A stretch of DNA of 64,000 nucleotides, from assembly GCA_009929215.1 (NCBI GenBank), contig SAAX01000004.1, positions 1,032-65,031 of the forward strand, read 5' to 3'. The notes under the pieces are model-generated. The model was given only the letters and a program-made list of their open reading frames with translations. It was not told the origin of the DNA and searched no databases. A program made the position numbers and the translations under genes. Of this stretch, positions 10,705-52,565 are shown piece by piece; the stretch's first letter is position 1, and the number at the start of each line of letters is the position of its first letter. The DNA comes from Deltaproteobacteria bacterium (GTDB lineage Bacteria > Desulfobacterota > Desulfovibrionia > Desulfovibrionales > Desulfovibrionaceae).

Positions 10705-10781
10705 TGGTCGGAGCGAAAGGATTCGAACCTTCGACTTCCTGCTCCCAAAGCAGGTGCGCTACCAGGCTGCGCCACGCTCCG
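10705..10781 (-). tRNA. tRNA-Pro (anticodon UGG)
   Basis: Hand-folded cloverleaf. Acceptor CGGAGCG/CGCTCCG, D stem GCGC/GCGC, anticodon stem CCTGC/GCAGG with loop TTTGGGA, T loop GGTTCGAATCC, and an encoded CCA. Confidence 0.95.
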
Positions 10782-10810
10782 AAAAAAAACCCGCGCCGTT
10801 GTGGCGCGGG
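10782..10810 (-). terminator. Canonical intrinsic terminator in the 36-nt spacer between tRNA-His and tRNA-Pro
   Basis: The minus strand reads cccgcgcc-acaac-ggcgcggg followed by T8, which abuts nucleotide 1 of tRNA-Pro. Confidence 0.7.
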
Positions 10811-10817
10811 AAAATTG

Positions 10818-10894
10818 TGGGGCGAAAGATGGGACTTGAACCCACGGCCACCTGGGCCACAACCAGGTGCTCTACCTACTGAGCTACTTCCGCC
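10818..10894 (-). tRNA. tRNA-His (anticodon GUG) with encoded G-1
   Basis: G-1 pairs with C73. Acceptor GCGGAAG/CTTTCGC, anticodon stem CCTGG/CCAGG with loop TTGTGGC, T loop GGTTCAAGTCC, and an encoded CCA. Confidence 0.95.
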
Positions 10895-37504: not shown

Positions 37505-37581
37505 TGGTAGGAACGAACAGACTTGAACTGTTGACCCCTTCCGTGTCAAGGAAGTGCTCTAGCCACCTGAGCTACGCTCCT
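37505..37581 (-). tRNA. tRNA-Val (anticodon GAC)
   Basis: Hand-folded. Acceptor AGGAGCG/CGTTCCT, D stem GCTC/GAGC, anticodon stem CTTCC/GGAAG with loop TTGACAC, T loop AGTTCAAGTCT, and an encoded CCA. Confidence 0.93.
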
Positions 37582-42486: not shown

Positions 42487-43491
42487 TCAGTTCCAGATAA
42501 AATGCAGCAGAAAATAAGATATGTAGCCGATACCCGCCGCTGCGGGCAGGGTAAGCACCCATGCAGTCATCATGCTGGCAGCTACATTCCAGCGCACGGC
42601 TGAAAGCCGCTTGGTGGAGCCCACGCCAAAAATGCAGGCCGAAATGGTGTGCGTGGTGCTGACCGGCGCGCCCATGAGCGATGCCCCGGTAATTACCATG
42701 GCAGCGGCGCTTTCAGCAGCAAAGCCGTGCACTGGCTCAAGCTTGAAGATGCGGTGCCCCATGGTTTTAACGATCTTCCAGCCGCCCACGGCCGTGCCAA
42801 GGGCCATGGCCCCCGCGCACGAAAGCTTAACCCACATGGGCACTTCCACAGTGTCGATCTTGCCAAAAATCAGCAGGGCGAGCGTGACGATACCCATGGT
42901 TTTTTGCGCATCGTTGAGGCCGTGGCTCGTGGCCATAAAGGCGGCAGATACAAGCTGCAACCGCCTGAACGATGCATTGACCGTGCGCCGGTGTATTCGC
43001 CCGCAAATCCAGAAAATAAGCCACATGCAACCAAAGCCCATCACATAACCGGCCAGGGGCGAGGCCACCAGCGGAACCAGCACCTTGTCCCAAATGCCCT
43101 TGACGTTCAGGGCGCTGAATCCCGCATCGGCCACGGCCGCGCCGATAAGCCCGCCAATGAGCGCGTGCGACGAAGACGAAGGGATGCCGAAATACCAGGT
43201 TATGCAGTTCCAGGCGATGGCCCCCACAAGGGCCGCCAGCACAAGAACATGGCTGCCCTCAACAACCTGCGGCAACACAATGCCGCTGCCAAGGGTTTTG
43301 GCCACCTCTGTACCCAGCAATGCCCCGCCAAGATTCAACAGCGCCGCTGCCCCCACCGCAAAACGCGGCGTAACCACCTTGGTGGAAACCACGGTGGCAA
43401 TGGCATTGGCGCAGTCGTGCGCGCCATTGGTGAAGTCGAACACCAGGGCCACCAGCACGATGAGCGCCAGCAGCACGGGGATATCAAACAT
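42487..43491 (-). CDS. Inorganic phosphate transporter, PiT family
   Basis: FDFTNGAHDCANAIATVV and the repeated C-terminal PVSTTHTISACIFGVG motif. The protein is polytopic. Confidence 0.92.
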   Translation of the reverse strand: MFDIPVLLALIVLVALVFDFTNGAHDCANAIATVVSTKVVTPRFAVGAAALLNLGGALLGTEVAKTLGSGIVLPQVVEGSHVLVLAALVGAIAWNCITWYFGIPSSSSHALIGGLIGAAVADAGFSALNVKGIWDKVLVPLVASPLAGYVMGFGCMWLIFWICGRIHRRTVNASFRRLQLVSAAFMATSHGLNDAQKTMGIVTLALLIFGKIDTVEVPMWVKLSCAGAMALGTAVGGWKIVKTMGHRIFKLEPVHGFAAESAAAMVITGASLMGAPVSTTHTISACIFGVGSTKRLSAVRWNVAASMMTAWVLTLPAAAGIGYISYFLLHFIWN

Positions 43492-44113
43492 TTTTCAGCA
43501 CCGCTTCTTCAATGGTTTCGGCCAGGGCATTGACCTGCTCAAGCAGAATATTCATGCGCTCGTAAGCCTGGCTCCATTTGAGCACCCGCATGAGGGCCTT
43601 GCTTGTGAGTTCCTGATGTTCGTCCATCAGTTCTGCCAGCCCAACGGCCAGCACCATATCGCATTCGCTGCGAAGCCCGCGAAAGGCGCGGGTTTTATGG
43701 CAGTCGCGCCTGTTGGCGAGGCCTTGAAGCATTTCATTGGTCAGGTCGAGCATGGCGCTGATGGTGCGCGCCATTTGCAGGGCGGGAAAGCGGATGGAGG
43801 CAAATTCAAAAATATGCAACCGCGTGCTCAGGCTGTGCAGGCAGTCCATGCACTCTTCCTGCTCCTGGTTGATACGCAGGATGTCCTCGCGGTCAATGGG
43901 CGTGATAAAGGTCTGCGAAAGAGCCCGGATGATCTTACTGTGCAGCAGGTCGGCCTCTTCTTCCAGAAAGGCTATTTCCTTGTGCACATGGTCCATGTTG
44001 GAAACGTCTTCCAGCATGTTTACCAGCAGGGCGGCCATGCGGCGCAGCAGATCGTTCTGCTCGGTGAGCATGGAAAAAAACGGGGCGGATTTGGGCAATA
44101 GGGCAGGAAACAT
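43484..44113 (-). CDS. DUF47 / TIGR00153-family PhoU-like phosphate transport regulator
   Basis: MFPALLPKSAPFFSMLTEQ...EEEADLLHSKIIRALSQTFITPIDREDI. There is an 8-nt overlap with the PiT start. RBS AAGGAGA. Confidence 0.85.
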   Translation of the reverse strand: MFPALLPKSAPFFSMLTEQNDLLRRMAALLVNMLEDVSNMDHVHKEIAFLEEEADLLHSKIIRALSQTFITPIDREDILRINQEQEECMDCLHSLSTRLHIFEFASIRFPALQMARTISAMLDLTNEMLQGLANRRDCHKTRAFRGLRSECDMVLAVGLAELMDEHQELTSKALMRVLKWSQAYERMNILLEQVNALAETIEEAVLKNV

Positions 44114-44480: not shown

Positions 44481-45554
44481 TCAGTACCCGGTGTTGAGCC
44501 ATTCCAGCGCGCGCCGTGCGGCGGGCTCTGGCAAAAATGTCCAGGGAGGCGGCACAATGCAGGTTGCGCCCGGAAGGGTCAGGCAACCGTGGTGTAAAAA
44601 GAATACAGAGGGGGATGCGTCAGCGTCTTCATCGGCGCTGGCAAAGCCGTACAGGGGGTCATTCCACAGGGGATGCCCAAAAGAAGCGGCATGGGCGCGT
44701 ATCTGATGGCGCGCGCCACGGCGGATGCGACAGCCCGCAAGGGTCAGGCCCACGCGGTGGAATTGCGAATCCTCGTCAAACGCGGGCAGGTTCAGCTCTG
44801 GCCCGTCAAAATAGTACAAGGGGAAAAATTCTGTCCAGCGCGTACGGCCCGTGTCGCGTTCCAGCACCCTGCTTTTGTTGCGCTTGTCTGTGCGCAAGGC
44901 GCGCCTGACCGTAAAGTCTTCTTCAAGCCGCCCTGCCAGCAGGGCCACATAGCGTTTTTCGCAGTGGCCGGCCACTTCGAGTCGGCGAAAGTCATCCGCT
45001 GCTTCGGGGCTGAAAGCCCCGCACACCAGACCAGATGTGCCGTGGTCAAGCCGCTGGAGCAATTGGGGGCAGGAGCCCGCCAAAGAATCTACTGAACTGG
45101 CAAGCAGTTGCGGCAACATTCCTTCGAGGCTTGGAGCCGTGCCCCCCACCAAAGCAGCCGTGTGCAGCCCTGCGGGCTTGAAGAAAAAACACAGCTCGCC
45201 CTGTACCGCCAGCAGGCGGGGTTCGCACTGATTGCTGTCCATGCCGGGAGCGCACGCGGCGCTCTGCTCCTCGGTTTCCGCCAGGGGTGCGACGTCTTTC
45301 GGTTCCTGCACAGCATCCTGCAAGATTACCACATCCCCCTTGCGCAGGCGCTGGGCCGCACTACAGGCGCGGCCATTGACCAGCACCAGGCCGTTTTCAA
45401 TGCAGCGTTTGCGGCCCCGCAAACCCATCTGGGGCAAAAGCAGGCTCAGGGCAAAATCGAGCCGCTGGCCCACCATATTTTGGCTTTCTGCCTCAAACTG
45501 TGTTGGCGTCAGCGAGGGCGCGGCGGAATCTGTAGATGAAATATCGTTGCTCAC
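44481..45554 (-). CDS. RluA/RluD-family pseudouridine synthase with an S4-like N-terminal domain
   Basis: GQRLDFALSLLL...NGRACSAAQRLRKGDVV (S4-like), QRLDHGTSGLV (catalytic Asp motif), and GARHQIRAHAASFGHPLWNDPLYG. The GTG start overlaps the upstream TGA (GTGA). An alternative ATG is at 45476. Confidence 0.85.
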   Translation of the reverse strand: MSNDISSTDSAAPSLTPTQFEAESQNMVGQRLDFALSLLLPQMGLRGRKRCIENGLVLVNGRACSAAQRLRKGDVVILQDAVQEPKDVAPLAETEEQSAACAPGMDSNQCEPRLLAVQGELCFFFKPAGLHTAALVGGTAPSLEGMLPQLLASSVDSLAGSCPQLLQRLDHGTSGLVCGAFSPEAADDFRRLEVAGHCEKRYVALLAGRLEEDFTVRRALRTDKRNKSRVLERDTGRTRWTEFFPLYYFDGPELNLPAFDEDSQFHRVGLTLAGCRIRRGARHQIRAHAASFGHPLWNDPLYGFASADEDADASPSVFFLHHGCLTLPGATCIVPPPWTFLPEPAARRALEWLNTGY

Positions 45555-46750
45555 AGGGTCACCGAACTGCCGGGCACAAGTTCCAGCAGGGCTTTGGCGG
45601 TTAGTTCCGGCACATGGCGCTGGGGATCGTTTTCGTTCACCAGGTCTTTTTCCACCAATCGCACGCCCATACGGGCCAGAGCCGTGCGCTCGTCGTCGTC
45701 CAGCCCGCCCTCATAGCGGCCATGCAGGGTATCTACCAGTACGGTATGCAGCAGTGCTTCGCTGGGCGCATCGGGCGCATCCTCGCGCAGATGGCGCAAA
45801 ATCATGGCCGCCTGCCCTGCCACCGTAAGCCCGTGCAGCTCTGCGTCTGTGCCAGTGTTGGGAATAAAAATCTTGGGGCACGAAACAGCGGCAATGGCCT
45901 TGCCCACGTTTTGCGGCAGCAGGTTGGCCAGCACGCTGGTGTAAAAGCTGCCCATGGGATAGCAAATGGCCCCCGCAGAGCGCAGGTAGGCCGCCGAAGC
46001 GGGCGCAAGCGGAGGGCGGCACGGGGTTTGCGGCTTCTTTGAGCCGTCATGGTTGCGGTCGGGCTCGTGCACGGTCAAAAACAGCCGCCGCACCGCAACG
46101 CTCAAATTTTTAAAATGGTGCTGCCCTATCACAATCGAGCCGTCTTCCAGCTCTGCCGCCAGGTGCAGGCTTTCGCTCACAATGGGCAAAACCACGCCAC
46201 GCGTTTGCAAAAGGCGGCTCAAAAAGGCCAGCACCGGGCCAAAAACGCGTTTGTGGTGCAGATAGCCGCCAGCCAGAATCAGGTTGCCCACGCAGGCCCG
46301 AAAGGGGTCAAAATCGTCGGGCATGCGCTGCAAAAAAAAGTTGAAATGCAAGCGCAGGGCATCGGCAAACAGGGGGGGCATATCTGCCCAAACGGGGTGC
46401 GTTTCGCTGCCCATGCTGCGCAGCTGTTGCCGCAACGGCTCTGGATCAGCATGCTCTTCACAGTTATCCGGCAATCTGCTGGCGCAGAATGCCATGACTG
46501 CGGCTGGCACAACGGCGCTGTCGGCAAGGGCCAGCAGGCGGTTGCGAATATCACCCACGGCGGGCATGGCAAAAGAACGCCGCAGGGCGGCAGAACTGCC
46601 GCCGGAATCAAAGGGCGTTACCAGATGAACAGAATTGTGCGTGTAGTGGATCAGTTGGCGGCTAAGGTCGCGCAGGGCCGTACCGCCCGTAAAAAAAACA
46701 AGTCGTGGACCCAATGGCGGAAAACAGAAAGGCGAAGAATTTTCGCTCAC
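45551..46750 (-). CDS. CofD/YvcK (UPF0052)-family protein, divergent subgroup (399 aa)
   Basis: RLVFFTGGTALRDLSRQL...HLVTPFDSGGSSAALRRSFAMPAVGDIRNRLLALAD matches the GGTG...DDGGSSG...GDxRN signature of the family. The start is set at GTG 46750 (GGAG 6 nt upstream), overlapping the upstream TGA. The longer track ORF would overlap 59 codons of the exonuclease gene. Confidence 0.75.
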   Translation of the reverse strand: MSENSSPFCFPPLGPRLVFFTGGTALRDLSRQLIHYTHNSVHLVTPFDSGGSSAALRRSFAMPAVGDIRNRLLALADSAVVPAAVMAFCASRLPDNCEEHADPEPLRQQLRSMGSETHPVWADMPPLFADALRLHFNFFLQRMPDDFDPFRACVGNLILAGGYLHHKRVFGPVLAFLSRLLQTRGVVLPIVSESLHLAAELEDGSIVIGQHHFKNLSVAVRRLFLTVHEPDRNHDGSKKPQTPCRPPLAPASAAYLRSAGAICYPMGSFYTSVLANLLPQNVGKAIAAVSCPKIFIPNTGTDAELHGLTVAGQAAMILRHLREDAPDAPSEALLHTVLVDTLHGRYEGGLDDDERTALARMGVRLVEKDLVNENDPQRHVPELTAKALLELVPGSSVTL

Positions 46751-47406
46751 ACCGAGCTCCCTGCGGCCTGCATATCGCCTTGGGGCAGGACATCGCAAAG
46801 ATTGCGACAGGAGGGTATGAGGCCCATCTCGCACATGCGCAAAAAGATCAGCCGACCAATCCAGGCATCGGTGGCGGCATAGGCAATCTGACGGGGGGAC
46901 AGTTCCATGAGGCTCCAGTTGGAGCACTGGGAACCTTTTGAAATGCGCCAGCCAAAAAAGTTTGCGGCAAGGGTGCGCAGCCCCTGGCTGGGCAGCTTGT
47001 GTGCGCGGGCAACACCGCCAAGGTCAACAAGCCCGGCGGGTTCAAAGTCGTACACCTTGGCAAGGTCGCGCATGTCATCGCGAATGCCCACGCCAGCCTT
47101 GACCTGATCGGGGTTTGCCAAAATTTCAACAATGTGCGGGCCAAAGGGCAAAAATGCCAACTGTACAAGGTACACGGCATTGGCGGTTGCCAGCTGGATG
47201 AGCGCAGGAGAATTGCGCCGCCCCTTGCGGAATGAGGGCCGCGTTTCCGTATCAAATCCAAGCAGGTCGGCAGAGCGCAAATCGGGCAGCGCTTGTTTCC
47301 AGTCGTCCAGGGAACGAATAACCTGCACCGACCCTTCGTAATGACAAAGAGGCATGGCGTTGATTTCTTCGCAACTCAGCCGACGGCGCAAAACATCCAT
47401 ATCCAT
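46747..47406 (-). CDS. 3'-5' exonuclease domain protein (RNase D / WRN-exo, DEDDy type)
   Basis: LLGFDTETRPSF, ALIQLAT, GVGIRDDMRDL, and YAATDAW motifs. The ATG lies 3 nt after the mnmE stop. Confidence 0.85.
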   Translation of the reverse strand: MDMDVLRRRLSCEEINAMPLCHYEGSVQVIRSLDDWKQALPDLRSADLLGFDTETRPSFRKGRRNSPALIQLATANAVYLVQLAFLPFGPHIVEILANPDQVKAGVGIRDDMRDLAKVYDFEPAGLVDLGGVARAHKLPSQGLRTLAANFFGWRISKGSQCSNWSLMELSPRQIAYAATDAWIGRLIFLRMCEMGLIPSCRNLCDVLPQGDMQAAGSSV

Positions 47407-47409
47407 AGG

Positions 47410-48834
47410 TTACTTACCAATGCAGAATTGGGCAAATATGCTGTTCAGCACTTCAGCCGGGCTTGAAAGCCCGGTAACTTCCCCCAGATACGAGGCGGCC
47501 ATATCAAGCCTGACCGCACAACAATCATAAGGCTGCCCAGCGACCACATCCGCACGCAGCCCTTCAAGCTCTTTCAAGGCCTTTTCCAGCGCCAGCGACT
47601 GCCGCGCGTTGGGCGCAAGTCCGTCTTCTGGCGGGGTATCCGCGCTGCCCCCAAGCAACACGGAACGCAGTGTTGCGGCAAGCTCGTCAACATATGTATC
47701 GGAAAGTGCGCTCACTGCGCAACACATTCTAGTGCCAATCCACCGAGGAGGAAATACTTTTGGCATACAAATGTCGCATTTGTTCCATACCACAAGCAGC
47801 GGTATATCGCCAACGGCTTCCAGCACCTCGCGGGCAGCGGGTTCTGGGCAAGTATCTGCGGCTGCGCCTTCTTCACCCAGCTTGGCCCCGTCCAGCACCA
47901 ACACCACAAGATCGGCCTGTGAAAGTTTTTTGCGGCTGCGGCTTACACCCAGCTGTTCTACGGTTTCCTCGGCATCGCGCAGCCCCGCAGTATCCGTAAG
48001 ACGCACGGGCAGACCATCGAGCAGACAGGTTTCTTCCAAAAAATCTCTGGTCGTGCCGGGTATGTCAGTAACCAGCGCCCGTTCGCGGCCCAGCAGGGCG
48101 TTGAGCAGGCTCGACTTGCCCGCATTGACGGCCCCGGCCAGCACCACCTGCGCCCCCTGCTGCGCTATCTGTGCACGTCGGCTGCCCGCCAGCAGGCGGT
48201 GCACCGCCAGCATCACGCCGTCAAGCACCTCACACAGGGCGGCGGGCTCCATACCCTCCACTTCTTCGTCGGGAAAATCCACGGCAAGGCACATCTGGGC
48301 GCGCAGCATTTCAAGCTCATCGCGCAATTCTACAGTGCGCTGCCCAAGCAGACCATCCAGCCGATTAAAACCGTAGCGCAGCGCCTCGCGCGAGGGTGCG
48401 GCAATAAGCTCTGCCACAGCCTCGGCCTGGCTAAGATCCATGCGGCCATTCACAAAGGCGCGGCGCGAAAATTCGCCCCGATCTGCCTGACGCGCCCCAT
48501 AACGGATGGCACTTTCAAGCACTGCCTGCACCAGATACGCGCCACCGTGGCTGTGGATTTCGGCCACATCTTCACCCGTAAAGGTGCGAGGCCCGGGCAT
48601 GAACACGGCTAGGGCATCGTCCAGCGCCTCGCCGTTCCAGTCGATAACCCGCCCCCGGTGCAAATGCCAGGGAGTAAAATTTTCTACAATCGCCGAAAGG
48701 GGCAGAAACATGCGGGCAAGTACCTCTTTGGCACGCGGCCCCGAAATACGCACAATGCCAATGCCCCCCGAACCGGGAGGTGTCGCGATGGCAGCGATGG
48801 TGTCGTTGCGCTCTGGCTGCATTGCTGTTTCCAT
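47410..48834 (-). CDS. mnmE: tRNA uridine-5-carboxymethylaminomethyl(34) synthesis GTPase MnmE
   Basis: DTIAAIATPPGSGGIGIVRISG, G-domain GAVNAGKSSLLNAL...DTAGLRD, and the C-terminal FCIGK. Confidence 0.96.
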   Translation of the reverse strand: METAMQPERNDTIAAIATPPGSGGIGIVRISGPRAKEVLARMFLPLSAIVENFTPWHLHRGRVIDWNGEALDDALAVFMPGPRTFTGEDVAEIHSHGGAYLVQAVLESAIRYGARQADRGEFSRRAFVNGRMDLSQAEAVAELIAAPSREALRYGFNRLDGLLGQRTVELRDELEMLRAQMCLAVDFPDEEVEGMEPAALCEVLDGVMLAVHRLLAGSRRAQIAQQGAQVVLAGAVNAGKSSLLNALLGRERALVTDIPGTTRDFLEETCLLDGLPVRLTDTAGLRDAEETVEQLGVSRSRKKLSQADLVVLVLDGAKLGEEGAAADTCPEPAAREVLEAVGDIPLLVVWNKCDICMPKVFPPRWIGTRMCCAVSALSDTYVDELAATLRSVLLGGSADTPPEDGLAPNARQSLALEKALKELEGLRADVVAGQPYDCCAVRLDMAASYLGEVTGLSSPAEVLNSIFAQFCIGK

Positions 48835-48951
48835 TTCATCCCCTGCTTACTTGCCCAAAAATCTGATCTGACACAGCTCTGGATTTGTGCTGCCCCGTGT
48901 TGCCAGCCGACTTCTGCCAGCTCACAGGCTGACTGCACATCGGTGGCCGCA

Positions 48952-48999
48952 AAAAGCGTTGCCGGAGATATGCCCCACTGGGCCTTTTCTCCGGCAACG
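48952..48999 (-). terminator. Intrinsic terminator after jag, separating it from mnmE
   Basis: The minus strand has an 11-bp stem gttgccggaga/tctccggcaac (19-nt loop) followed by GCTTTTT. Confidence 0.7.
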
Positions 49000-49069
49000 T
49001 AACAAGCTCACTTGGGCTGAACAGCCCGCTTGCGGTGACGCTTAGGCGCGTGTGGCGTGAGGCTGAACG

Positions 49070-50605
49070 CTAGGCGCGTTCTCCCTTTTTACGCATGATC
49101 ACAACACGCTTCATGGGGCCATCACCCGTGCTGCGGGTTTGCACGTCTGCCGCTTCCTGCAAGCACACATGCACAATGCGCCTGTGGTACGAGGAAAGCG
49201 GACGGGTTGAATACGAGCGCCCGCTCTGGCGAACCTTGTCTGCCAGGGCCAGCGCCATTTCGCGCAGTTTTTCGTCCTGACGGCGGCGGTACTCGCCAGC
49301 ATCAAGTTGCACACGCACGGCGGCGTTCATGCCACGCGAAACAATGCGCGATATCATATACTGCAATGCCGCAAGGGTTTGCCCTTCGCGGCCAATCAGC
49401 AGCCCGGAATCTTCGTCACACTCAATGCCAACATACACCCTGCCGCCGCCGATTTTAATGGCAATGGCCACCTCGTCACCAGTGATGGGACGAATGAGCT
49501 TGCGCACGGTATCGCCCACCAGGGCTTCAAGCTTGGCGGCATCAAGCTGTTCAAGTGGTGTAACGGGCAGACCTTCGCCTGCGGCGTCAAAGTCCTCTTC
49601 AAGGCCATCCAGCGCCGCATCGGTCTTGGGGGCACGCTCTGGGCGTGCTCCATCGCGGTGCGTGGGGCGCGTATCGCCCCTGCCGTTACCCCTGCCTTCA
49701 GAACGGGCATCGTTACGGCGGCTCCGCGATTCACGCGCGGCAGATTCCGTGACGTTGCCAGCTTCTACAGCCTCGTCGCCCTCTCCATTTCTGCCTGTGC
49801 GGTCACGGCGGTCGTTACGGTCGTTGCGGCCATTTCGGCTTGTAGGCTTGCTGCCGTTCCTGTCCTGCTTGCCGTTGTGGTCATTGCGATCATTACGGTC
49901 GTTGCGTCGGTCAAAGGGCTTGTCGGCCGGTTTTTCCAGCACGTTTCCGTTACAGGCGGCGTCAAGGGCCTCTTCGCTTTCATACGAATCAAGCGACGGA
50001 GGCCTGTTGCGGTTGCGCCCACGGTTACGGCGGTCATCCTGCTGCTGCCCACGCGGAGCCCGGGAATCCTGCCCGCGCTGGTCTTGCCCTCTCTGGTCTG
50101 GCCCACGTTCTGCCGAGCGGGACTCTTGCCGTGTGCGGTCGCGGCCTTCGTCGCGGCCTTTTTCGGCCTGGGCCTCAGCTGGCTTTTGAGCAGATGCCAC
50201 GGGGGCTTCTGCGCCTGTGGAAGCAGGGGCAGGAACGGCCGCGGGGGCTGGTCTGCCGCCGTTTTTGCGCGTCTCTGCCGAGGCAGGGGCTTCATCGCCG
50301 CCACCCTGATTGGCAGGTTGACCAGAACCTTGCCCAGAACCCTGGACAGACCCCTGGGCAGCCCCCTGTGCAGACGCAGCGTTATCACCGCCCTTTCTGC
50401 CCAGGATACTGTCTACCGCTTCGCGCAGCTGCACGCGGCGGGCCCGAACCTTGGCCTTGCGTGCGCCAACGATACCGAAGATGCCCGACTTGGCATCCTG
50501 CACAATCTCGATCTCAAGTTTTTCGCGCGCTGTGTTAAAGTAGCCGCAGGCTTCCTCTATGGCGCCGTCCAGATCCTTGCCCTGGAATTCCTTAAACCCT
50601 TCCAT
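49070..50605 (-). CDS. jag: Jag/KhpB-type RNA-binding protein (Jag_N, KH, R3H) with a ~275-aa low-complexity insertion
   Basis: The N-terminus MEGFKEFQGKDLDGAIEEACGYFNTAREKLEIEIVQDAKSGIFG is Jag_N-like. The C-terminal KH (LLIGREGQTLAALQYM) and R3H (SYHRRIVHVCLQ) are present. The middle is rich in G/Q/R/D/N repeats (RNDRNDRNDHNGKQDRNG, GQDQRGQDSR). Confidence 0.88.
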   Translation of the reverse strand: MEGFKEFQGKDLDGAIEEACGYFNTAREKLEIEIVQDAKSGIFGIVGARKAKVRARRVQLREAVDSILGRKGGDNAASAQGAAQGSVQGSGQGSGQPANQGGGDEAPASAETRKNGGRPAPAAVPAPASTGAEAPVASAQKPAEAQAEKGRDEGRDRTRQESRSAERGPDQRGQDQRGQDSRAPRGQQQDDRRNRGRNRNRPPSLDSYESEEALDAACNGNVLEKPADKPFDRRNDRNDRNDHNGKQDRNGSKPTSRNGRNDRNDRRDRTGRNGEGDEAVEAGNVTESAARESRSRRNDARSEGRGNGRGDTRPTHRDGARPERAPKTDAALDGLEEDFDAAGEGLPVTPLEQLDAAKLEALVGDTVRKLIRPITGDEVAIAIKIGGGRVYVGIECDEDSGLLIGREGQTLAALQYMISRIVSRGMNAAVRVQLDAGEYRRRQDEKLREMALALADKVRQSGRSYSTRPLSSYHRRIVHVCLQEAADVQTRSTGDGPMKRVVIMRKKGERA

Positions 50606-50643: not shown

Positions 50644-52293
50644 CTATTTCGCTACGGCTGTAGAGAACTTCTTCGCCATCATCCTCTGCTGCGCAATGGA
50701 CAGGACGTTGTTGACCAGCCAGTACAGTACCAGACCAGAGGGGAAGCTCAGGAACATGGCGGTGAAGATCAAGGGCAGGAACATCATGATCTTCTGCTGG
50801 GTGGGGTCAGTAGCCGGGGGGCTCATCTTCTGCTGGATAAACATGGTCAGGCCCATGATAACGGGCGTAATATAGAAAGGATCCTTGGCCGAAAGATCGG
50901 CCAGCCACAGAATATCCGTGCCGGGCACATACGAGATAAAGGGAGCGTGGCGCAGTTCGATGGAGGTAAGCAACGCCTGATACAGACCAAAGAACACGGG
51001 CATCTGGATAAGAATGGGCACGCAGCCACTGGCCGGATTAACCCCATAGGTCTTGTAGAGCGCCATGACTTCCTTGTTCATGAGCTCCTTGTTGTCCTTG
51101 TGCTTTTCACGGATAGCCGCCATGTGGGGCTGAAGCTTCTTCATCTTTTCCATAGAAGCATAGCTCTTGGCCGTAAGCGGCCAGAACAGCGCCTTGATGA
51201 GCACGGTCAACAGAATGATGGCAACGCCCCAGTTGTTGACGTACTTCTGGAAAAATTCGAGCAGCCACAGCAGGCCCTTGGCGATAACGTGGAACATGCC
51301 AAGGTCGATGCTCTTGGAAAGCTGGTCGGACACGGCGGCAAGTTTAGCGCGTTCCTTGGGGCCAAGCCAGTAAGAAACGGTCAGTTCGCGTTCCTGGCCG
51401 GGGCCAAGCATCACTTCAGGCTCTTCAACAGCAGCGCGAAACACATTCTGCTGCATGCGGCCTTTGACTGTCACATTATTGATATCGCCGGGCAGCACTG
51501 CTGCCAGAAAATAGGTGCTCATGGTACCGGCCCAATAAATCTTACCAGTAACCAGCGAACCTGTGGTTTCAAGAGTTTGAGGCGACGATTCTTCGCCAAG
51601 GCTACCGTCGTTGTCCCAGGCAAGGCGCATGGCATCATAACGGTCACCAGCGGCATTGCTGGCATCGGCGGCAACGGTGTAGCTCACGCGCACGCTGCGG
51701 GCCTGATCGGTAGTGTTCACCACACGAATTTTTTCGCGGATCAGATAGGTGTCGGCGCTAAAGGTCATTTCGCGCACAACACGCAGGTTGTCCACTTCGC
51801 CGTTAAACCGCAGCACGCCCTGCTGGCCTGCAGCAATGTTCAGGCCGTTTTCGGCGTTTTCAACAGACCACTGGCCAGTGCTCCACGAGGGCTGGCTGTT
51901 AACCACAAGGCCCAGAGGGGCAACCGTGGCGGTCTGGGAATCGACAAGATTGACCAGGGGAGAATCGGACGCAAGGCCGGTCTGGTACTGCTTGAGCTTG
52001 AAAGAGCGCAGTGCGCCGCCGCCGGTATGAAAAACGGCTTCGTAAAGGGGAGAATCGACCTTGAGGTCGCGTCCGGGGGCGGGGGTAAACACGGGCAGCG
52101 CCTGCTGGGCGGCAGCTGCGGCCTGCTGCTGCACCTGCTGCTGTTGGGCGGCCTTTTGCTCCTGCTGTTGCTGGGCAACCACAGCCGGATCAGGCTTGCG
52201 AACCCATCCCATGTATTCGGACAGGTAACTCCAGCCCACAATAACGACGAGGCACAAAAGAATGGCGATGATCAGATTTTTTCCGTCTTGCAT
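50644..52293 (-). CDS. yidC: Membrane protein insertase YidC
   Basis: MQDGKNLIIAILLCLVVIVGWSYL..., a large periplasmic domain, and the conserved C-terminal 5-TM core (WGVAIILLTVLIKALFWPL...). An alternative GTG start at 52305 overlaps the yidD stop. Confidence 0.95.
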   Translation of the reverse strand: MQDGKNLIIAILLCLVVIVGWSYLSEYMGWVRKPDPAVVAQQQQEQKAAQQQQVQQQAAAAAQQALPVFTPAPGRDLKVDSPLYEAVFHTGGGALRSFKLKQYQTGLASDSPLVNLVDSQTATVAPLGLVVNSQPSWSTGQWSVENAENGLNIAAGQQGVLRFNGEVDNLRVVREMTFSADTYLIREKIRVVNTTDQARSVRVSYTVAADASNAAGDRYDAMRLAWDNDGSLGEESSPQTLETTGSLVTGKIYWAGTMSTYFLAAVLPGDINNVTVKGRMQQNVFRAAVEEPEVMLGPGQERELTVSYWLGPKERAKLAAVSDQLSKSIDLGMFHVIAKGLLWLLEFFQKYVNNWGVAIILLTVLIKALFWPLTAKSYASMEKMKKLQPHMAAIREKHKDNKELMNKEVMALYKTYGVNPASGCVPILIQMPVFFGLYQALLTSIELRHAPFISYVPGTDILWLADLSAKDPFYITPVIMGLTMFIQQKMSPPATDPTQQKIMMFLPLIFTAMFLSFPSGLVLYWLVNNVLSIAQQRMMAKKFSTAVAK

Positions 52294-52301
52294 GAGGGCG
52301 T

Positions 52302-52565
52302 TCACTCCTGGGACAGTGGCGGGACGTCACGAGGACGCCTTGGTGGTGGAACAGGGTCGTAACCTGAGCCGCCCCAGGGATGACAGCGGGCAAGACGCTT
52401 GAGCGCAAGCCAGCCCCCCCGAAAGATGCCGTGGGTCATGATGGCCTCTGCGGCATAGGCGGAACAGGTAGGATAATACCGACAGGCGGGGGGAAGCACT
52501 GGCGAGATACAAAGCTGGTAAAAGCGTATGGGTAAGATGCACAGGTTACGCAGCAAATGACTCAT
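52302..52565 (-). CDS. yidD: Membrane protein insertion efficiency factor YidD
   Basis: [36 protein letters not shown] overlap with the rnpA stop. Confidence 0.93.

Follow-up and report, generated by a model that had tools for sequence, protein, structure and literature searches.

We analysed a 64,000-nt stretch of a Desulfovibrionaceae genome (the window: positions 1,032 to 65,031 of contig SAAX01000004.1, assembly GCA_009929215.1), in which a gene of the CofD/YvcK superfamily is packed into a minus-strand run behind mnmE. Read from the sequence, this run holds, head to tail, mnmE, a DEDDy 3'-5' exonuclease gene, a 399-aa CofD-like gene and a gene for an S4/RluA-family pseudouridine synthase. 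The first gene of the unit, mnmE (47410-48834, minus strand), encodes the GTPase of the 5-carboxymethylaminomethyl (cmnm5) modification of tRNA U34 and was recognised by TIGR00450 (326.6 bits; cutoff 252.6), PF10396, PF12631 and PF01926. Its TAA (47412-47410) is followed 3 nt (CCT) later by the ATG (47406-47404) of the stand-alone exonuclease of 219 aa (46747-47406, minus strand; PF01612). The exonuclease TGA (46749-46747) and the GTG (46750-46748) of the gene for the CofD/YvcK-superfamily protein (45551-46750, minus strand; TIGR04357 and PF01933) share the GTGA at 46750-46747, and a GGAG motif that reads like a Shine-Dalgarno sequence lies 6 nt before this GTG, within the 3' end of the exonuclease gene (46757-46760, minus strand). 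The CofD-like TGA in turn shares a GTGA (45554-45551) with the GTG of the divergent RluA-type pseudouridine synthase gene of 357 codons (44481-45554, minus strand; PF00849). Public gene predictions, made independently on four identical metagenome contigs, also chose the GTG start of the 399-aa protein. In the original prediction the four genes had been described as packed with almost no spacers, and the 3-nt gap, the two GTGA overlaps and the GGAG motif matched the sequence at every coordinate. Its claim that a jag terminator divides the mnmE unit from rpmH-yidC-jag was supported by folding, which located a terminator-like hairpin followed by a U-run at 48952-48999 (minus strand), in the 235-nt spacer between jag and mnmE (48835-49069). 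The view that the four genes form a tightly coupled unit, parted from jag by a terminator-like hairpin, is thus supported.

The CofD-like protein matched the NCBIfam model TIGR04357, 'GAK system CofD-like', with 435.6 bits (cutoff 340) over model positions 1-368 of 368; a membership in this family that had earlier been suspected was in this way established by hidden Markov model search. It also matched PF01933 (1e-35), and its score against the YvcK model TIGR01826 (111.3 bits) stayed under the cutoff of 196. The AlphaFold2 model of the protein has a mean confidence (pLDDT) of 91.5. The nearest structures found with Foldseek were of the YvcK type (2hzb, 2o2z and 2ppv; E-values from 5e-21 to 3e-20, target-normalised template modelling (TM) scores of 0.76-0.82), whereas CofD/FbiA structures were further away (TM 0.52-0.63, 11-13% identity). 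The predicted fold is therefore YvcK/GlmR-like rather than CofD-like. With CofD/FbiA, the 2-phospho-L-lactate or phosphoenolpyruvate transferases of F420 biosynthesis, the protein has PF01933 and the overall Rossmann-like fold in common, but it gave no CofD equivalog match, and the annotated flanks showed no cof or fbi genes. Neither the domain scan nor the AlphaFold2 model revealed a recognisable RNA-binding domain outside the CofD fold.

All 27 family-invariant columns of a 22-sequence alignment, which are common to both clades of the family described below, are intact in the window protein (motifs FFxGG, FDxGxS, GDxRxR, GN, GQ, PxGSFxxS, K, E and D), and therefore the protein does not look like a decayed remnant. 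Through an alignment with BH3568, its R378-H379 and Y270 align with R301-H302 and Y265 of GlmR, the YvcK-type protein. In Bacillus subtilis GlmR, Y265 and R301 are required for binding UDP-GlcNAc (uridine diphosphate N-acetylglucosamine) and for the interaction with YvcJ (PMC7525490). In Listeria, GlmR has uridyltransferase activity, and its D40 and N198 are predicted to be catalytic (PMC10128056). The invariant D48 and the nearly invariant N298 of the window protein correspond to these two residues, where the equivalence of N298 and N198 is a reading of the shared motif and not of a printed alignment. Thus, YvcK/GlmR is the closest solved fold, with the motifs GGT, DxGGSS, GD(I/L)RN, GS(F/L)Y(T/S)S and the C-terminal RH in common, and putative equivalents of Y265, R301, D40 and N198 are all present in the window protein. 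However, the identity is about 23%, the window protein is about 80-90 residues longer than the YvcK-type structural matches, the second Asp of the DD pair is replaced by Ser49, and the gene has the exonuclease and RluA-type genes as neighbours instead of yvcJ/rapZ or whiA.

The 219-aa exonuclease gave 77.3 bits with PF01612 (cutoff 23.6; 1.7e-21), and its best match in the PDB was the WRN exonuclease domain 2e6l (7e-18). The DxE, D and YxxxD catalytic motifs align with those of WRN as GFDTET, RDD and YAATD. The closest solved relatives are the WRN domain, EXD2 and NrnC, with RRP6, Mut-7 and RNase D more distant; the sequence similarity to the NrnC of Inquilinus is weak (6e-8), and NrnC is an octameric dinuclease with an active site restricted to dinucleotides. 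Like the WRN exonuclease domain, EXD2, NrnC and RNase D, the window protein comprises one DEDDy domain of about 200 aa, in which the catalytic residues are complete, but it has neither helicase nor HRDC domains and falls under every equivalog cutoff. Specifically, the RNase D model TIGR01388 reached 28.1 bits against a cutoff of 298.95, and the protein consists of a single domain without HRDC. It thus appears to be an active 3'-5' exonuclease, whose sequence does not decide between DNA, RNA and dinucleotides as substrate. The earlier view of this protein as an enzyme of tRNA or rRNA is weakened, as its nearest solved relatives are WRN, EXD2 and NrnC and the RNase D models lie far under cutoff.

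The third protein of the trio belongs to the RluA family by its PseudoU_synth_2 domain and putative catalytic Asp, and is a divergent, distantly RluD-like member. PF00849 gave 57.5 bits (cutoff 26.8), the S4-like N-terminus was weak (17.8 bits), and the RluA-type catalytic (H/Q)RLD motif is present as QRLDHGTSG. The TIGR00005 score of 83.6 bits was under the cutoff of 192.7, as were the scores against all other equivalog models, and the nearest solved structure was RluD, at only 4e-9.

A scan with one genome per species found a relative of the CofD-like protein in at least 577 species, and the best 80 loci, all picked via the CofD-like gene, were analysed with ±10 kb of flanking sequence and annotated by phmmer with the window proteins and the proteins of a reference cassette. 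The TIGR04357-type family comprised 278 cluster representatives (50% identity, E<1e-30), and all eight members tested passed the TIGR04357 cutoff. Fifty loci (L008-L056 and L065) formed an exonuclease-type group, labelled Desulfovibrio or Desulfovibrionaceae except for two implausible labels, with CofD-like proteins 45-94% identical to that of the window. The exonuclease gene was upstream of the CofD-like gene in all 47 loci that had upstream sequence and directly adjacent in 45, and yidC-jag-mnmE stood upstream of the exonuclease wherever the flank sufficed. The exonuclease stop and the CofD-like start overlapped by 4 nt at most of the 47 loci and by 8-20 nt at some, and the sequence encoding the FFxGG motif began 18-134 nt past the exonuclease stop. 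RluA followed the CofD-like gene in 31 loci, and where it was present the junction ranged from -11 to +7 nt, with L046 (+63) as the sole exception. In L005 and L036 there is no RluA gene and those for an M50-like peptidase and trpS come next. The two implausibly labelled loci, L054 (CAVJEZ010000045.1) and L055 (CAVLCT010000016.1), are assigned to Odoribacter splanchnicus and Bulleidia sp. and carry the full Desulfovibrionaceae-type block (yidC, jag, mnmE, exonuclease, CofD-like, rluA, phoU and pit), probably as a result of bin contamination.

The arrangement was also found in much more distant members of the family. The order mnmE, exonuclease, CofD-like gene and RluA was kept around P0157, P0179 and P0259, which are 35-43% identical to the window protein; the YidC proteins of these loci are 60-72% identical to those of the Desulfovibrio loci, and therefore they too belong to the Desulfovibrionaceae. 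In such deep comparisons the CofD-like and RluA proteins were down to about 36-43% identity, and the exonuclease was the best-conserved member of the trio, at 59-60% where the CofD-like protein had only 35-43%. Two Nitratidesulfovibrio-type loci, L045 (1754-11215) and L048 (372-5556), preserved the order of mnmE, exonuclease and CofD-like gene with two Fe-S cluster proteins encoded between mnmE and the exonuclease; downstream there was no RluA gene and a DUF3313 protein was encoded instead. The trio had been put forward as a conserved unit, and of this the linkage between exonuclease and CofD-like gene holds far past the close relatives, to about 35% CofD-like identity, but RluA is dispensable, as 8 loci are without it. 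A survey had further been suggested for a linkage independent of mnmE and in other phyla; all exonuclease-linked loci were Desulfovibrionaceae with mnmE upstream. The contrary outcome considered at that time, a linkage limited to few close relatives and scrambled in others, applies by half: within one bacterial family the association reaches deep and is stable, and outside this family it is missing.

The other 30 loci, at most 45% identical, had no exonuclease, no mnmE and no RNA gene nearby. They came from Maridesulfovibrio, Pseudodesulfovibrio, Solidesulfovibrio, Desulfobacterales, Desulfarculus, Zixibacteria, Eisenbacteria and a Neptuniibacter bin, and their CofD-like gene belonged to the GAK cassette. 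This gene set encodes an XXXCH-domain protein, a 382-aa protein, an amphi-Trp protein, a fusion of PhoU with an APH-like kinase, the GAK ATP-grasp ligase, the HprK-related kinase B (HprK-B), the CofD-like protein and a second amphi-Trp protein. Locus L075 of Maridesulfovibrio sp. FT414 served as the reference cassette, with TIGR04356 (ATP-grasp), TIGR04355 (HprK-B), TIGR04354 (amphi-Trp) and TIGR04358 (XXXCH) as the models of the partners. Of the 30 loci without exonuclease, 24 had a complete or nearly complete cassette, and the others had reduced versions (e.g., L062, L069 and L079). In Solidesulfovibrio alcoholivorans (L062:7532-11122) it is minimal and consists of a PhoU-domain protein, HprK-B and the CofD-like protein only, a hint that the core of the GAK system is made up of PhoU, the kinase and the CofD-like protein. 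The literature searches gave no relevant paper on the GAK system or on its parts, such as amphi-Trp, the HprK-related kinase and the CofD-like protein, and none on DVU1082 and DVU1086, the presumed locus tags of D. vulgaris Hildenborough.

The window protein is 41-45% identical to cassette-borne members of the family and has all family-invariant residues in common with them. Its gene, however, is without XXXCH, amphi-Trp, PhoU-kinase, ATP-grasp and HprK-B neighbours and is instead translationally coupled, behind mnmE, to the genes of a DEDDy exonuclease and an RluA-type synthase; moreover, a TGKExxP loop that follows the GQH motif in the canonical GAK proteins is missing from the exonuclease-linked clade. 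The ATP-grasp and XXXCH partners had been reported as missing from this DNA, and the phmmer search of every open reading frame of the 64-kb window agreed, with no GAK partner at E<=1. Likewise, no GAK partner was found within ±10 kb of any of the approximately 50 exonuclease-type loci. The named records among the 120 best HprK-B relatives were Maridesulfovibrio, Pseudodesulfovibrio, Humidesulfovibrio, Salidesulfovibrio, Paucidesulfovibrio, one Marinifilum-labelled record and Zixibacteria, accompanied by 'Desulfovibrio sp.' isolates and metagenome-assembled genomes of uncertain placement (JC010, JC022). No species name of Desulfovibrio sensu stricto (e.g., D. desulfuricans or D. piger) occurred among these 120, nor did any very large cluster, although the gut-Desulfovibrio CofD-like clusters reach 802 members. 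In addition, the best 80 loci included no second TIGR04357 locus from exonuclease-type assemblies; in Maridesulfovibrio two copies were found in one locus. These indirect results favour the view that the CofD-like gene is truly orphaned from its GAK partners in exonuclease-type genomes.

In a neighbour-joining tree of 223 family members, the exonuclease-context proteins fell into one clade of 78 leaves with no cassette-context locus inside. Two residues mark this clade and were found in no GAK-type protein, namely W121, in 61 of 71 members, and H379, in 69; R378 was kept in just 36 of the 71. The tree and the marker residues give moderate support to a single origin of the exonuclease-linked proteins, all of which are within the Desulfovibrionaceae.

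A second set of neighbours concerns phosphate. Downstream of the RluA-type gene the window carries a PhoU_div (DUF47) gene (43484-44113, minus strand) and a gene for a PHO4/Pit phosphate transporter (42487-43491, minus strand), both identified with Pfam on the identical public contigs. The two genes overlap by 8 nt, and the pair starts 367 nt past the RluA-type gene. PhoU_div and Pit lay 41-367 nt downstream of rluA in all 26 loci with a detected PhoU_div, the window included, and the pair is far better conserved (49-86% identity) than RluA. PhoU-type genes stand beside the CofD-like family in four architectures, among them the PhoU-APH-kinase fusion of nearly every canonical cassette, the minimal Solidesulfovibrio set of PhoU, HprK-B and CofD-like protein, and, in L045 and L048, the phoB-pstB-phoU genes that precede the CofD-like gene. 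We consider this recurring PhoU/phosphate neighbourhood to be as good a clue as the RNA neighbours.

A further association was found in Maridesulfovibrio-type genomes, where about 7 kb separate the canonical GAK cassette from a second paralogue that also passes the TIGR04357 cutoff (401 bits). In all five loci it lies directly upstream of nfo, the gene for endonuclease IV (TIGR00587, 301 bits), with a gap of 21-29 nt or an overlap (L075:17744-19798; L059:16939-18956; L072:16900-18949; L091:4001-6015; L092:1-1543). The nfo pairing is a second, independent nuclease association of the CofD-like family. A metagenome scan for this paralogue gave three loci, with the CofD-like/nfo pairing in two that are close relatives, which is too narrow to generalise.

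Upstream of the unit lie jag/khpB (49070-50605, minus strand) and yidC (50644-52305, minus strand), both identified with Pfam; they belong to the universal rpmH-rnpA-yidC-jag-mnmE block, to which the unit is anchored, and this upstream block was kept at every related locus with sufficient flank. The hairpin in the jag-mnmE spacer consists of a 12-bp stem and an inner 4-bp stem (-33 kcal/mol, z = -3.1 against shuffled sequences) followed by GCUUUUUG; a simple terminator scan did not pick it up because the loop is long. The 235-nt spacer with its strong hairpin is particular to this species group, and in L005 the gap between jag and mnmE is 6 nt. The spacer thus differs among relatives, and therefore the separate transcription of mnmE from jag varies by lineage. 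The Jag/KhpB protein itself has 511 aa, of which about 300 form an insert of low complexity, rich in Arg, Asp, Asn, Gly and Gln (RNDRNDRND repeats), between Jag_N and KH/R3H; orthologues at related loci have between 288 and 586 aa, and this linker thus grows and shrinks rapidly. No Rfam element was found at the gathering threshold around 44-49 kb of the window. The only Rfam matches in the window were three tRNA genes at 10708-10893 and 37508-37581 (minus strand).

The comparisons show that the arrangement extends the rnpA-yidC-jag-mnmE operon, is inherited vertically and is found in the Desulfovibrionaceae only; in it, one TIGR04357 gene left its usual partners and became translationally coupled to a DEDDy exonuclease and, mostly, to a divergent S4/RluA synthase. 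Overall, we regard the locus as a lineage-specific re-wiring of an uncharacterised family; an RNA substrate of the CofD-like protein would be a matter of guilt by association, a speculation that we do not favour. Tentatively, and as a possibility rather than an expectation, we propose by analogy with GlmR that the CofD-like protein could be a ligand-binding partner of the co-translated exonuclease in the 3'-end maturation or turnover of stable RNA. It would most likely still bind a ligand of the nucleotide-diphospho or nucleotide-sugar type, as the invariant residues and the putative GlmR equivalents D48, N298, Y270 and R378, the last of these next to the clade-specific H379, are retained. GlmR offers a precedent for ligand-dependent partner switching that includes the RapZ homologue YvcJ, and the model would be its switch between GlmS and YvcJ according to UDP-GlcNAc. 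Made in a fixed ratio with the exonuclease, the CofD-like protein may act as its ligand-dependent partner or regulator and would gate the 3'-end trimming of stable RNA, whose molecules would also be substrates of MnmE and of the RluA-type enzyme, and it would itself be no RNA modifier. The overlapping junctions at most of the 47 loci and the identical operon in the three deep members support this proposal, as do the family and fold of the protein, the absence of GAK partners from the window and the ±10-kb flanks, and the single clade with its marker residues.

Several results weigh against the proposed partnership with the exonuclease. The link between the two proteins is genomic only. A fusion of exonuclease and CofD-like protein occurred in none of approximately 400 family members. 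RluA is absent from 8 loci with at least 1.2 kb of downstream sequence, and in L045 and L048 phoB-pstB-phoU part the exonuclease from the CofD-like gene, so that the two are about 3 kb apart. The exonuclease-linked loci all belong to one bacterial family, and therefore common ancestry explains much of the synteny; a 4-nt overlap can also last through inertia. The unity of the clade itself was only moderately supported by bootstrap, as known-context loci showed no intruding outsider in 40 of 60 replicates and strict monophyly including the representatives without known context was recovered in 23 of 100. Finally, the nearest characterised relatives of the exonuclease act on DNA or dinucleotides. 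In the survey of fusions, a 721-aa candidate (P0152) was rejected since its N-terminus is of low complexity, has no domain and is unlike any neighbour protein, and it is probably an over-extended call of the reading frame; P0162 and P0191 have merely short N-terminal extensions.

The explanation that survives next best is that the CofD-like gene is an operon hitch-hiker, with a phosphotransfer or ligand role of the GAK-family kind that is tied to PhoU-type phosphate signalling, and that it is merely co-transcribed with neighbours that say little about its substrate. We rate this as a conceivable but rather doubtful alternative. It would agree with the four architectures in which PhoU-type genes accompany the family, with the characterised members of the superfamily (CofD/FbiA and GlmR), which act on or bind small molecules, and with the dispensability of RluA. 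However, an untranslated gap sets off the PhoU_div-Pit pair, in contrast to the overlapping junctions of the exonuclease and RluA, the pair is missing in the RluA-less sublineage (e.g., L005 and L036), and in L045 phoU is about 500 nt from the CofD-like gene. PhoU_div and Pit are, besides, a widespread pair in their own right, which also counts against this explanation.

The original prediction proposed a direct phospho- or nucleotidyl transfer by the CofD-like enzyme onto an RNA or a modified nucleoside precursor, together with 3'-end trimming and pseudouridylation, and this we consider unlikely. The gene is indeed flanked by, and translationally coupled to, an exonuclease and a pseudouridine synthase gene behind mnmE; at a nucleotide phosphate, the superfamily carries out phosphodiester or nucleotidyl transfer, as in CofD and in the uridyltransferase activity of GlmR; the putative catalytic residues appear to be kept, and W121 and H379 could mark an altered substrate. 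Nevertheless, we know of no member of the CofD/YvcK superfamily that uses a polynucleotide substrate, and in most lineages the neighbours of the family are kinases, an ATP-grasp ligase and small amphi-Trp proteins, and no RNA gene is among them. The limitation of the linkage to one bacterial family, the loss of RluA in part of the clade and the lack of a recognisable RNA-binding domain also argue against a transfer onto RNA.

It is more improbable still that the gene is a relocated GAK component, moved beside mnmE and the exonuclease and working in trans with HprK-B, ATP-grasp and amphi-Trp encoded elsewhere in the genome. The score, which exceeds the trusted cutoff of the model for the GAK family, and the modular nature of the cassette, which is reduced in L062, L069 and L079, are consistent with such a move. 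Yet no partner was found in the 64-kb window or within ±10 kb of the approximately 50 exonuclease-type loci, the 120 best HprK-B relatives included no named Desulfovibrio sensu stricto and no large gut-Desulfovibrio cluster, the best 80 loci held no second TIGR04357 locus from exonuclease-type assemblies, and the clade bears signature residues of its own.

A broader version of the transfer idea, equally hard to credit, is that the exonuclease-linked clade was recruited to nucleic-acid ends, where it would catalyse a phospho- or nucleotidyl transfer to or from the 3' terminus of RNA (or DNA) exposed by the exonuclease. If true, the CofD/YvcK superfamily would gain its first activity directed at polynucleotides, and the pairing of the paralogue with endonuclease IV would become a second instance of the same logic. 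Very unlikely in our opinion is a role in DNA-end processing, in which the exonuclease would be a WRN-like DNA 3'-5' exonuclease and the CofD-like protein would assist in the repair or processing of damaged 3' ends. The best solved homologues of the exonuclease, the WRN domain (7e-18) and EXD2, and the nfo pairing, which gives the family two independent nuclease associations, point in this direction; but the nfo pairing was seen in one genus only, the mnmE and RluA neighbours encode RNA enzymes, and DEDDy similarity cannot tell DNA from RNA substrates, as RRP6, Mut-7, RNase D and NrnC were also matched. Defence was discarded as a function, since PADLOC gave no matches for the trio or the GAK partner proteins apart from a meaningless 12.9-bit BrxH.

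To our knowledge, only two branches of the CofD/YvcK superfamily are understood, namely F420 biosynthesis and the control of UDP-GlcNAc by GlmR. The TIGR04357 family was already known computationally, and the genomic arrangement described here is new. The name 'GAK system CofD-like protein' is misleading in Desulfovibrio-type genomes because no GAK system accompanies the gene. As the re-wired context involves three proteins instead of an eight-gene cassette, it makes the TIGR04357 branch easier to approach by experiment, and some relatives of the host lineage are amenable to genetics. Gut metagenomes are rich in the species in question, and one CofD-like cluster alone has 802 member sequences. 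If a link to the exonuclease were found, the idea of a GlmR-type metabolite-sensing partner would extend to the processing of RNA or DNA ends, and if phosphate is the real connection, it would give a first handle on the role of the GAK cassette.

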